This document shows positions 15,065-18,161 of a DNA stretch of 64,000 nucleotides, piece by piece. The notes under the pieces are model-generated. The model saw only the letters and a program-made list of their open reading frames with translations. It was not told the origin of the DNA and searched no databases. The stretch is from Thermoanaerobaculia bacterium (GTDB lineage: Bacteria > Acidobacteriota > Thermoanaerobaculia > Multivoradales > Multivoraceae): assembly GCA_963664405.1 (NCBI GenBank), contig OY761158.1, positions 3,680,001 through 3,744,000 of the forward strand, read 5' to 3'. Positions within the stretch are counted from its first letter, which is position 1, and the number at the start of each line of letters is the position of its first letter. The translations under genes were made by a program, and so were the position numbers.

Positions 15065-15772
15065 GTGCTACGGGCGATCCTCTTTGGTTTCAGTGGTGTG
15101 CTTGTCGATGATCAGCCCCTCCACTTGGGTCTCTTCCGCCGGGTTCTTGCCGAGGACGACATAGAACTATCCGATGCGGAGTATTCAAAGCTCTACCAGA
15201 GTCGTGACGACAAGGACTTTCTCTCCGCGGTACTAAGAGGCAGGGGACAGCGCTTTGACGAGGCGCTGTTGATGCGGCTACTCACCCGCAAGGCGAGCTA
15301 CTTTCGGGAGCAGATCCGGGTTGAGGGCTTTCCTTTCTTTCAAGGAGCTCTCCAATTGGTGAGGAAGGCCGCCGAGGAGTCCTTCACTCTGGGTGTGGTT
15401 TCTCGCGCCCTGCGCGGTGAGATCGAGGCGGCGCTAGAGCAGCCGGCTGTCGGAGGCCTGTTCAAGGTCGTCGTCTCTGCCGAGGATGTGGAGGAGACGA
15501 AGCCGGACCCGGAAGCCTATCGCCGCGCCCTGAGCGATCTGAACAGCGTGCCTCCGCTCCCTTCCAGGCTTTATCACCCGCATGAGGTGCTTGCGGTCGA
15601 AAACAGCGTCTCGGGTCTCGCCGCCGCACGAGCGGCCGGCTTGGTGACGCTCGGCGTATCGCACAGCTCTTCGAGTGAGGGGCTCGCCGGCGCGGATCTG
15701 GTAGTCGGGGGCTTGGGTGAGGTCCGCCTCGACGTCCTGCAGCAACAGCTGGCCGAGGCTAGCCGGAGCTAG
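15065..15772 (+). CDS. HAD-superfamily (beta-PGM/CbbY-like) protein with altered catalytic motif
   Basis: ILFGFSGVLVD (DxD replaced), KPDPEAY, AVENS..GL.AA..AG. Confidence 0.8.
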   Translation: MLRAILFGFSGVLVDDQPLHLGLFRRVLAEDDIELSDAEYSKLYQSRDDKDFLSAVLRGRGQRFDEALLMRLLTRKASYFREQIRVEGFPFFQGALQLVRKAAEESFTLGVVSRALRGEIEAALEQPAVGGLFKVVVSAEDVEETKPDPEAYRRALSDLNSVPPLPSRLYHPHEVLAVENSVSGLAAARAAGLVTLGVSHSSSSEGLAGADLVVGGLGEVRLDVLQQQLAEASRS

Positions 15773-15935
15773 TGTCCTGTATCAGTAGTTCGTCACACAA
15801 CTCGCTGGCCCTTTTGCGCGCTGCCGTCGTTGCTCCTCCTCGCAATATTGCCCAATATACCTTCGTCGTAGCGCCTTGGCAGCACCCAAAATGACTGCGC
15901 GATTTATGCAACGAACCACTGATACAGGACACTAG
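15769..15935. repeat. CTAG-bounded long hairpin element, copy B
   Basis: 18-bp perfect terminal IR CTAGTGTCCTGTATCAGT; core AATATTGCCCAATATA; starts at stop of the HAD gene. Confidence 0.88.
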
Positions 15936-15959
15936 GAGCGTGTATCTGGACTCCAATGT

Positions 15960-16290
15960 CAACAGGGGTGGGTCGGTCTTCTTGTTTTTGATAGAGGTTT
16001 CCTTGGTGTGTAATCACAGGCAGTATGGAGGTCGATGGTGAGTCAAGACAGCAGACGTATCTCCGGCCTGTAGTGGGCGATTATTAGCGCCGGGCCATGA
16101 TGAAGAAATGCGCGTGAGGGAGCCGAATCGTCCGAAAGGGCCTCGAAGGCCAACGCTCCTATCGGCTTTTCCCCCCACGCCAGTCTGACTGGAAACCATC
16201 AGAATTCTCTACTCGCGCTGTCGGAGTGTTTGTGAGTGTTCAATTTGAAGTCTTCGGGTGCGTTGGGGTCCAGAGATCGAGGCCAAGGGC
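15960..16290 (-). ncRNA. Putative bridge RNA/seekRNA of the IS1111-type element
   Basis: Non-coding region downstream of the transposase, with stem-loops whose internal-loop segments match the target (TAGGAGCGT; GTCCGA) and the IS-end junction (TTCATCAT; TATCT); RNA boundaries unknown. Confidence 0.75.
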
Positions 16291-17331
16291 TCAGGCCGTG
16301 ACTTGCCGTGGAGGCTGCAGCTGGAAGGAGGTCTCGTGGGTCCAGACCGCCCAGACAACGCGTGCGAGCTTGTTGGCGAGGGCAACGGCGGCCCGGTTCC
16401 GTCCCCGCGAGCTCTCGACTCTGAGGGCCCACTGTTCGAGCCTACCGGCGGGTCCCTTTCTCCTCGCCCAGCTGAGCACCGACCTGGCGCCATGAATGAG
16501 GAGAGTTCGTAAGTACGCGTCCCCGCGTTTGCTGATCCTGCCGAGCCACCGCCGAGCGCCACTGGAGTGTTCCCTGGGAGTCAGTCCGAGATAGCTGGCG
16601 AGATGCCGGCCGCTTTTGAAGCGGCGAATGTCTCCGATCCAAGCGACCATGGCTGTGGCCGTGAGTACGCCTACGCCCTTGATCGTCAGGAGTCGCTTCA
16701 CGGCCTCGTCCTGGCGCGCGAGGGCTTGGATCTGTGCCTCGAGCTCTTGGATCTTCGTGGTCAGCTCGTCGATGTGGTCACAGATGCTTTCGAAAAAGGG
16801 TCGCAAGACGAGCGGGATCTCGGTATCCGGATCCGCGAGCCAGACGCGGACGCGCGGCAGGACCTGGGCGCGTCCCTGGGGCAGAAAGAGCCCGAGCTCT
16901 CGTAGGTGCCCGCGCAGAGCATTGATGTGGGCGGTGCGATCGTCCATGAACGACGAACGGATGCGATGGAGCGTGGTCATCGTCTGCTGCTCGAGCGATT
17001 TGACCGGTACGGGTAGGATGTCCTCGTTTCGATGCGCCTCGAGCATGCCCGTGGTATCCGTTCGATCCGATTTATTGCGCAACACATAGCGCCGGGTGAA
17101 ATGCGGTGGCAGCAGGATCACCTCGTGGCCGAGACTCTGAATACGCCGGCCCCAGTAGTGCGCCGAACCGCAGGCTTCCATGAGGACGGTCGCGGGCTTG
17201 ATCTGCGCGAAGAACCTGAGGAATTTCGCCCTTCGCACGCGCTGCCTCTCGGCGACCTTACCCGGCTCGTAAGACACCGCGATCTCGAAGACATCCTTGG
17301 CGATATCGACTGCGATACGTGTACTCTTCAT
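16291..17331 (-). CDS. IS110-family DEDD transposase/recombinase
   Basis: AVDIAK, MEACG, KSDRTD RuvC-like DEDD; GLTPREHSSG serine loop; GRISKRGD; VALANKLAR. Confidence 0.96.
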   Translation of the reverse strand: MKSTRIAVDIAKDVFEIAVSYEPGKVAERQRVRRAKFLRFFAQIKPATVLMEACGSAHYWGRRIQSLGHEVILLPPHFTRRYVLRNKSDRTDTTGMLEAHRNEDILPVPVKSLEQQTMTTLHRIRSSFMDDRTAHINALRGHLRELGLFLPQGRAQVLPRVRVWLADPDTEIPLVLRPFFESICDHIDELTTKIQELEAQIQALARQDEAVKRLLTIKGVGVLTATAMVAWIGDIRRFKSGRHLASYLGLTPREHSSGARRWLGRISKRGDAYLRTLLIHGARSVLSWARRKGPAGRLEQWALRVESSRGRNRAAVALANKLARVVWAVWTHETSFQLQPPRQVTA

Positions 17332-17420
17332 CGTGGACTCCCTTTCTACGATCAACGTTTGCGACTTAGGTGACCCCTGGCACATAGATGCCGAAGTCAC
17401 CGGGGAGTCCATTTCATCAT

Positions 17421-17499
17421 CCGAGAATTCGGACAGGCGAGTAGTTCTTAGGCGGGGATGGGCCGGAGAACGGGCCGAAGGCGCGTTTTCTGGGGCTAG
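17421..17499 (+). repeat. Right part of a 91-bp CTAG-bounded REP-like repeat split by the IS (left part 15932-15943)
   Basis: 15932-15943 joined to 17421-17499 reconstitutes the reverse complement of 27392-27482 with ~4 mismatches. Confidence 0.9.
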
Positions 17500-17564
17500 G
17501 CTCAGACGAGGGTGGTGATCGCCCTCGTTCTCGAGGATCCCGGTGATACGATCGCCGATCCCTG

Positions 17565-18161
17565 ATGACGGAAGCGGGAGCCAGAGAACCGGCCAGCGGC
17601 CAGATTGAAGTGATCAGTGGTGGAATGTTCTCGGGCAAGAGCGAGGAGCTGCTTCGTCGCCTCCGACGAGCGGTGATCGCGCGGCAGAAGGTTCAGGCCT
17701 TCAAGCCAGCGGCCGACACTCGGCACGCCCCCCAGCGACTGATTACGCGTGACAATCGCGAAGTCTCCGCCATGTCGGTGGGTGACAGCACCGAGCTTGC
17801 GCGAGTTCTCGCGCCCGACGTTCAAGTGATAGGAATCGACGAGCCGCAGTTTTTCGACGAGGGGCTTATAACCCTCTCGTCCACCCTGGCCGATCAGGGC
17901 GTGAGGGTGATCATCGCTGGACTCGATCAGGACTTCCTGCGTCGACCCTTCGGACCGATGCCTGGCCTCTTGGCACTGGCCGAGTTCGTCGACAAGATGC
18001 ACGCGATCTGCGTGGTTTGTGGATCTCGTGCTCACTTTACCCAGCGCATTGCGGGCGGAGCCGAGCTGGTGCAGGTTGGCGACGACGACTACTACGAGGC
18101 TCGCTGCCGTACCTGCTATGAGCTTGGTCCGCGGCCGAAGGCGGCTAGCCTGCCGAGATGA
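17565..18161 (+). CDS. tdk: Thymidine kinase
   Basis: GGMFSGKS P-loop, IDEPQF, AGLDQDF, CVVC…YEARCRTC. Confidence 0.96.
   Translation: MTEAGAREPASGQIEVISGGMFSGKSEELLRRLRRAVIARQKVQAFKPAADTRHAPQRLITRDNREVSAMSVGDSTELARVLAPDVQVIGIDEPQFFDEGLITLSSTLADQGVRVIIAGLDQDFLRRPFGPMPGLLALAEFVDKMHAICVVCGSRAHFTQRIAGGAELVQVGDDDYYEARCRTCYELGPRPKAASLPR

Follow-up and report, generated by a model that had tools for sequence, protein, structure and literature searches.

The window analysed here is a 64,000-nucleotide (nt) stretch of contig OY761158.1 from a Thermoanaerobaculia bacterium, and unprefixed coordinates refer to it. On its minus strand lies an insertion sequence (IS) of the IS1111 group (IS110 family), 1,477 base pairs (bp) long, beginning with TGATGAAATGGACTCC at 17419 and ending with TTGACATTGGAGTCCAGATA at 15943, in which the transposase gene is followed by a conserved non-coding RNA (Table 1). 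The transposase matches the Pfam domains Transposase_20 (PF02371, E = 2.2e-27) and DEDD_Tnp_IS110 (PF01548, E = 5.2e-11) and is 49.7% identical to an annotated ISPa25-family transposase. Direct reading of its translation gives GLTPREHSSG, an instance of the C-terminal motif GL-P----S(t)G that section 6 of PMC11187229 describes for IS1111 transposases together with a length of 330–350 amino acids (aa), a range that includes the 346 aa found here. Non-coding sequence is unevenly distributed, with 347 nt downstream of the transposase gene compared with 88 nt upstream. The sub-terminal inverted repeats are 8 bp long and leave extensions of 8 nt at the left end and 4 nt at the right; relatives carry a 10- to 14-bp version of the same repeat. 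As described in PMC11187229, such repeats are usually 11–13 bp long in IS1111 elements and the terminal extensions are asymmetric, 7 and 3 bp. The extensions here become 7 and 3 nt if the first repeat pair is counted as mismatched, and the repeat is shorter than usual. If the right end were joined to the left end, the −35-like hexamer in the former would stand 17 nt from TGnTGAAAT, and the two would form a junction promoter; the right ends of some relatives, read by eye and uncounted, carry TTGAC or TTGGC at the same place. The domains, the motif, the sub-terminal repeats, and the position of the RNA after the gene bear out a first-pass annotation of this DNA, which had proposed an IS1111-group element with a 3′-encoded guide RNA, and every string quoted in it is present on the minus strand where it had been placed.

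Table 1. Features of the IS and its target in the window (RNA letters for RNA segments; here and in the text, a slash within a DNA sequence marks the insertion point or, in A/TGATGAA, the joint of the IS ends)
Feature	Coordinates	Strand	Basis and remarks
Whole IS	15943..17419	-	TGATGAAATGG...GGAGTCCAGATA in transposase orientation; three identical genome copies with the same junctions
Transposase gene	16294..17331; stop codon 16291-16293	-	346 aa; one long open reading frame, ATG at 17331
Left sub-terminal inverted repeat TGGACTCC	17404..17411	-	Direct reading; preceded by 8-nt extension TGATGAAA (17419-17412)
Right sub-terminal inverted repeat GGAGTCCA	15947..15954	-	Direct reading; followed by 4-nt extension GATA (15946-15943)
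TTGACA, −35-like hexamer in right end	15957..15962	-	Direct reading
Conserved non-coding RNA (long seekRNA / bridge RNA), ~164 nt	16037..16200	-	Conservation; model R1, 187.7 bits; structure
GAUGG, 5′ strand of helix P1	16196..16200	-	Resembles IS left end (T)GATGA
Target-loop arm: basal stem GCGUGGGGG/CCCUCACGC, inner stem AGCCGA/UCGGCU, cap hairpin GGCCUUCGAGGCC	16111..16183	-	Pair counts
Target guide, 5′ strand of target loop, UAGGAGCGU	16153..16161	-	Complementary to top strand of right flank ACGCTCCTA (15940-15932)
Target guide, 3′ strand of target loop, UCGGAC	16130..16135	-	Equals top-strand left flank TCGGA plus first right-flank base C
Putative left-end guide of the first-pass annotation (doubtful), UUCAUCAU	16097..16104	-	Complementary to A/TGATGAA of the joined ends; UCAUC (16099-16103) is the 3′ strand of P1
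Nested hairpin GGCC(GGCG...CGCC)GGCC between the two donor segments	16065..16096	-	99.5% and 97.7% paired
Right-end (donor) segment AGAUAC	16057..16062	-	Equals top strand of right IS end AGATA plus flank base C
Left part of interrupted REP-like (repeated extragenic palindrome) repeat, CTAG...GTCCGAATTCTCGGA (target)	17420..17499	-	~40 near-identical 51-nt genome matches
Right part of interrupted repeat, CACGCTCCTAG	15932..15942	-	Junctions and repeat contexts

The genome, a single 6.78-Mb contig, holds three copies of the IS that are 100% identical over 1,500 nt and are all bordered by CGAATWCTCGGA (left flank) and CACGCTCCTAG (right flank). A second IS type whose full length is 72% identical to the first also has ends at exactly this point in this sequence, three on each side. 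The occupied target is represented by six left and six right junctions, all at one point and in one orientation. The unoccupied target, TCGGACACGCTCCTA, occurs uninterrupted 64 times in the genome, compared with 0.017 occurrences expected from composition, and because this same repeat is the one occupied by the IS copies, the empty site that had been reconstructed from the flanks at the first pass is correct. In contigs assembled from four DNA or untyped sequencing runs over 15600–17800, the IS forms a separate unitig at about two to four times the depth of its unique flanks. One contig joint was seen in them, from 15769 to 17420 on opposite strands, which fits another IS copy beside an inverted repeat copy; the empty form of this locus was not seen in these contigs.

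Two families of roughly 90- to 100-nt CTAG-bounded repeats occur genome-wide, often in tandem; one contains the GC-rich hairpin CCGGAAAACGGGCC...GGCCCGTTCTCCGG, the other starts with CTAGTTGTCTTTTGGCGCCGAGGACGGCGCAC, and the 23 nt at the 3′ end, CGAATWCTCGGACACGCTCCTAG, are common to both and constitute the IS target. About 130 nt past the right end of the IS, 36 nt at 15769–15804 are 86% identical, in inverted orientation, to what lies immediately right of the insertion point and are probably another repeat unit in the opposite orientation. Elsewhere in the genome (C1, about 6025684–6028369), a 5′-truncated copy of the sister IS, one repeat unit, and a full copy lie head to tail, with the consequence that the RNA gene occurs twice within 1.6 kb (L005, 1216–1388 and 2741–2913). 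A third relative with 54% protein identity (L008; C1, about 592000–593400, minus strand) has no start codon or recognisable left end, shows TA in place of the SG motif, has a guide that is retargeted, and is apparently a decayed copy.

Between the two IS types, the only well-conserved non-coding block is 16200..16040 (by eye ~90%), the remainder having diverged with indels. From this RNA block in three elements of the genome we built a covariance model, R1. A scan had found 540 relatives, of which 80 loci (41–61% protein identity) were kept, and one locus per cluster of non-coding regions plus seven others gave a set of 51. R1 found a full-length RNA 70–170 nt after the transposase match, with 49 matches over these 51 loci, and 88 matches over 86 sources when run on all loci. 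It also matches, at full length, the 3′ region of an annotated ISPa25-family element (E = 1.3e-13), as well as a second integron-borne element (E = 8.9e-13). The loop strands of the ISPa25-family RNA, UAACAAUGCC and GCUUGAACGAU, fit GCTTGAA/CGAATTGTTAG, which Table 1 of PMC13604230 gives as the target of ISKpn4 and ISPst6, and those of the second integron-borne element fit it as well. The R1 match and the fit of the loop strands to a published target therefore place the RNA in the family of the published seekRNA elements: it belongs to the family that includes the ISPa25/ISKpn4 type, part of an RNA-guided system described in 2024.

The structure of this RNA is retained in the relatives. Over the 56 distinct rows of the alignment, 89.9% of cells are paired, compared with 70.1% when partners are shuffled (none of 500 shuffles as high) and 27–49% when partners are slid by one to three columns, and both partners vary in 31 of 36 pairs. 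For six of the seven helices the alignment was fitted to R1, which favours those six, while the seventh, P1, lies outside the model. In the target-loop arm, AGCCGA (16167–16162) pairs with UCGGCU (16126–16121) to form the inner stem, and the cap hairpin lies at 16151–16139; double changes occur in all nine pairs of the basal stem and in three of the four pairs of the cap. RNAalifold, run on the 88-row alignment, recovers the basal stem (seven of nine pairs) and the cap. It does not recover the inner stem, which is 61.9% paired in the pair counts. The two stems of the nested hairpin between the donor segments show double changes in three of four and four of four pairs. P1 consists of five pairs between UCAUC (16103–16099) and GAUGG (16200–16196); 96.1% of its cells are paired in the 56 distinct relatives, and three of the five pairs show double changes (G-C in 41, C-G in 12, A-U in 1, and G-U in 1 at one pair; G-C in 37, A-U in 9, and G-U in 7 at another). 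It is not predicted by RNAalifold from the same 88-row alignment, and the evidence for it is the pair counts. Two other pairings were rejected: a long-range helix CAGUCAGAC/GUCUGCUG of the minimum-energy fold, which by eye is not kept in relatives and competes with a local hairpin that has compensatory changes, and a pairing of GAUGGU with ACCAUC (16039–16034), perfect here and imperfect in the sister element.

In a Marinacidobacterales assembly (L052, 3105–4354) the RNA gene is present four times in tandem, at spacings of 396, 292, and 396 nt, and the flank that follows the first of the right ends resembles the 3′ portion of the transposase gene; another locus (L073, 3103–3606) has it twice. 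These tandem genes recall the free-standing and tandem ssr9 modules that PMC12288879 describes for ISPpu9.

The first-pass annotation had suggested building a covariance model from transposase homologues and using it to look for covariation between guides and flanks; in relatives found with R1, the two target guides do covary with the flanks. The IS ends of relatives were called from their inverted repeats by a custom script. Of the 88 rows, 12 had no ends and 6 were dropped for weak repeats or short flanks, leaving 70, and a limit of <90% RNA identity reduced these to 38 non-redundant elements. Positions are numbered from the repeats, such that L-8..L-1 is the left extension and R+1..R+4 the right extension. 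The longest match of the 5′ target guide to its own right flank averages 6.66 nt, compared with 3.44 nt to the flanks of other loci, and exceeds the 95th percentile in 26 of the 38 elements, while wrong-strand and wrong-side controls are flat. Exact 9-nt matches between guide and flank occur in nine elements, including the one in the window, L053, L041, L061, L097, L075, and L021. A fixed-register comparison of this guide with R+4..R+13 gave 8–23 agreements of 37 per position (L089 was dropped, its target loop being unalignable); this signal is diluted because the register shifts by one base between elements, and the register-free longest match was used instead. For the 3′ strand of the target loop, alignment columns 187–191 equal L-13..L-9 in 25, 25, 30, 34, and 31 of 37 elements, values reached in none of 2,000 locus-label permutations at any of the five positions. 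The next base of this strand equals the right-flank base R+5 in 27 of 36 elements (8 of 2,000 permutations as high) and gives no signal against L-8 (8 of 36). Within the genome itself, the decayed third IS type has the right flank GCCTTTC, and its guide is changed to GAAAGGC. Both target guides proposed at the first pass are real, and they covary with the flanks of related elements.

The proposed right-end guide AGAUA(C) is likewise supported by covariation with the right IS end. This segment equals R+1..R+3 in 38, 37, and 37 of the 38 elements (0 of 2,000 permutations as high). It also equals R+5 in 31 of 38 (1 of 2,000 as high) and R+7 in 21 of 38, compared with 10.8 expected (0 of 2,000 as high), and in the same 38 elements it is unrelated to L-8 or L-6. 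The match of the segment is continued (alignment columns 305–307) into the right flank at R+5 and R+7, and not into the left-end start that would be expected of a circle junction. This flank-matching continuation may be the analogue of the handshake guides of IS621.

Because the minus-strand A at 17420 is identical to the final IS base, this element allows a one-base overlap to be drawn, and the first-pass annotation had drawn it, as a single-T shared core, with IS limits of 17420..15944. In relatives, L-9 varies and tracks the target guide as a flank base does (31 of 37, compared with 10.1 under permutation), and R+4 is the almost invariant A of the IS end. We predicted the empty site for each of 56 distinct flank pairs and looked for these sites among the collected loci. 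Empty sites without a shared base were found for seven elements, three of which discriminate between the placements: L021 (three hits), L068 (five), and L067 (one). The rival placement with a shared base was found only for three elements in which both placements predict the same DNA. Published IS1111 elements, as PMC11187229 describes them, insert without added or shared bases ("no additional bases"). Because L-9 tracks the guide, R+4 is near-invariant, and the empty sites and the published rule agree, the shared base is a coincidence: the A at 17420 follows the target guide. That no core is shared is already known for the IS1111 group. The L-9 covariation, the empty sites of relatives, and the published 7- and 3-bp extensions together fix the boundary at 17419..15943 (TGATG...CCAGATA), with the A at 17420 a target base. 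Nor do target guides that abut, instead of sharing a core, indicate a different geometry, as had been suggested. Their order, with the top-strand match 5′ of the bottom-strand match, is the published IS1111 order, in which the seekRNA segment complementary to the top strand lies 5′ of that complementary to the bottom strand (PMC11187229, section 9). In most relatives the two guides overlap by 1–2 nt on R+5/R+6, which usually read CG; they merely abut here because the target reads CA where most read CG.

Collectively, these data support the view that the window very probably contains an intact, recently active IS1111-group element whose DEDD transposase works with a 3′-encoded seekRNA, or bridge RNA. 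Its anatomy, copies, and empty sites, the family and structure of its RNA, and the covariation of guides with DNA are shown by the sequences compared; RNA expression, a circular intermediate, the junction promoter, and catalysis we infer from published relatives. In the mechanism that we propose, the element would excise as a circle, by analogy with ISEc11, ISKpn4, and IS621, and a promoter formed from its joined ends would, again by analogy, drive transcription of the transposase gene and the RNA. In the target loop, the 5′ strand UAGGAGCGU would read the right half of the target by pairing with its top strand, and the 3′ strand UCGGAC would read the left half by pairing with its bottom strand; AGAUAC would pair with the right IS end, again on the bottom strand. 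Recognition of the left end could fall to UUCAUCA(U), once an internal helix has opened, or to the protein, acting through the sub-terminal repeats. The RNA–protein complex would then insert the element after ...CTCGGA in the REP-like repeat, in one orientation and without duplication.

Several observations weigh against this interpretation or parts of it. The permutation controls shuffle locus labels 2,000 times and ignore the kinship of the sequences; the size of the signal and its diagonal pattern make a lineage artefact unlikely. In 3,000 dinucleotide shuffles of the non-coding region, the 9-mer match to the right flank was equalled or beaten in 28, but the 8-mer match to the left end was equalled in 188, the left-flank match in 887, and the 5-mer match to the right end in 2,973, such that only one of the four matches is unusual by itself. 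The folding energy is no better than that of shuffled sequences (z = −0.56 for the 347-nt region and +0.34 for a 136-nt core). With one of four matches unusual and an ordinary folding energy, the support comes therefore from the relatives and not from this sequence alone. An Rfam scan of 15700–17700 returned four matches with E values of 0.84–9.8, all far below gathering scores. The circle junction was not seen in the contigs of the four runs, which cannot show rare forms. Among 15 sequencing runs listed, none was an RNA run covering the stretch. The left-end guide does not separate own from foreign ends, with a mean match of 5.66 nt to its own end and 5.18 nt to those of other loci and only 3 of 38 elements above the 95th percentile, and L-7 pairs with this segment in just 18 of 38.

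This left-end segment, UUCAUCAU, is doubtful as a guide. In the first-pass annotation it had been placed in a second loop, but that loop is not open, five of the eight bases (UCAUC) being paired in P1. In favour of a guide, across all 38 elements an average of 6.3 of its 8 positions can pair with the left end, and one position, L-3, covaries with it (30 of 38, compared with 19.9 expected; 1 of 2,000 permutations). It also directly abuts its hairpin, as the target guide does, in a fixed register. The segment may be a scaffold helix, a gated guide, or both.

One way to reconcile these facts, tentative and in our view well short of probable, is that P1 acts as a switch, in which GAUGG would imitate the left end and hold UUCAUCA closed until the complex meets donor DNA, the left-end guide being real but gated. 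The fixed register, the placement against the hairpin, and the covariation at L-3 fit such a switch. Indeed, at L-3 the 5′ strand, the 3′ strand, and the DNA read G, C, G (19 elements) or A, U, A (6 elements), such that 25 of 38 are consistent with it. The poor pairing at L-7 and the lack of P1 in the RNAalifold structure speak against it, as does the fact that, because most positions are conserved, complementarity to the left end is indistinguishable from shared ancestry. There is also a minor chance that two features of this RNA clade are as yet undescribed for IS1111 elements: a 5-bp P1 in which the RNA 5′ end mimics the left end and sequesters the presumed left-end guide, and a right-end segment that matches about 3 nt of the right flank (R+5, R+7), as in the integrated and not the circle junction, as an opposite-strand counterpart of the IS621 handshake guides. 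In this reading, recombination would also need no base common to donor and target. If so, P1 could gate donor binding or bias insertion against excision.

Alternatively, only the target-loop arm (16111–16183) may guide, like a short seekRNA, with the transposase reading the ends through the sub-terminal inverted repeats and the 3′ half of the RNA, including UUCAUCAU and AGAUAC, serving as a scaffold or processing signal whose likeness to the IS ends is incidental. An 82-nt short seekRNA is sufficient for ISEc11 movement, and sections 10 and 14 of PMC11187229 leave the role of the long form open. In addition to the failure of the left-end match to discriminate, UCAUC in P1 covaries with the RNA 5′ end instead of with the DNA. 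In 11 of 38 elements the first P1 pair flips from G-C to C-G with the left end unchanged, and in 8 of 38 the DNA changes there with the RNA unchanged. We nevertheless consider this alternative unlikely, as the near-complete tracking of the right-end extension by AGAUAC is unexpected of a mere scaffold, and the extension that is tracked itself varies (GATA, TACA, TGTA, TCTA, TATA, TAGA, and others). That the copies are inactive relics whose conserved block is kept for a non-guide reason, such as a transcription terminator or a 3′ untranslated region element of the transposase messenger RNA, is very improbable: the same genome does hold decayed and truncated relatives, but the three copies are identical with an open reading frame, and a terminator or untranslated region fails to explain loop strands that change with the target while the stems are kept by compensatory changes.

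An active element with a 3′-encoded guide RNA, as preferred here, adds a well-resolved natural example to a known system: its copies are intact, empty sites are numerous, and the genome also has a sister element that shares the target and a decayed one whose target differs. In about 38 related elements, guides can be compared directly with targets, and the set could help in designing small IS1111-type recombinases (346 aa plus an RNA of ~165 nt). The example raises a testable point on recognition of the left IS end but represents no new kind of system.

Among IS1111/IS110 elements that target REPs, such as ISPa11 and ISPpu10, the insertion point is constant and adjoins the REP stem. The element described here resembles these, GTCCGAATTCTCGGAC being itself an inverted repeat.

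The closest counterparts are the attC-targeting elements ISKpn4, ISPst6, and ISPa25, for which a seekRNA was experimentally shown or predicted in the account of Siddiquee et al. (2024; PMC11187229) and which carry the same RNA family. They share with the present element an RNA located after the transposase gene, the same order of guides, and insertion without duplication, and the ISKpn4/ISPst6 target ...TTGAA/CGAATTGTTAG is also seen in several of the relatives compared here. The guides and target differ, the target here being a REP-like repeat ending CTCGGA/CACGCTCCTAG. So does the host: among the 80 relatives kept of 540, the closest come from Acidobacteriota assemblies. The published IS1111 extensions are 7 and 3 bp, whereas here they are 8 and 4 nt with an inverted repeat of only 8 bp. 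Two of the loci collected, L101 and L102, carry an ISPa25-family element and a related IS between class 1 integron gene cassettes on Pseudomonas and Stutzerimonas plasmids, a placement that is as expected for the attC-targeting subgroup.

For ISEc11, also of the IS1111 family, the seekRNA is described as essential and reprogrammable, with short and long RNA forms, a junction promoter, and flanks that are required for excision (PMC11187229). By that description, ISEc11 resembles the element here in its sub-terminal repeats and 3′ non-coding region. Its two target matches overlap, whereas here they abut.

IS621, of the IS110 group, as described by Durrant et al. (2024; PMC11208160) and Hiraizumi et al., likewise combines a DEDD recombinase with one RNA that reads both target strands and at least one donor end, and both elements target REP-type repeats. 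In contrast to the published picture of IS621, in which the RNA is encoded upstream, in the left end, the RNA here lies downstream of the gene (16037–16200), and the strand order of its guides is reversed. The sub-terminal repeats are long in the present element, and its donor segments are placed next to a three-way junction, not within a simple internal loop. Where IS621 has a core dinucleotide shared by donor and target, the element here has one A, which behaves as a target base. An IS621-type donor loop contains guides to both donor strands; here the right-end segment covaries, while the left-end segment is mostly contained in P1 and has one covarying position.

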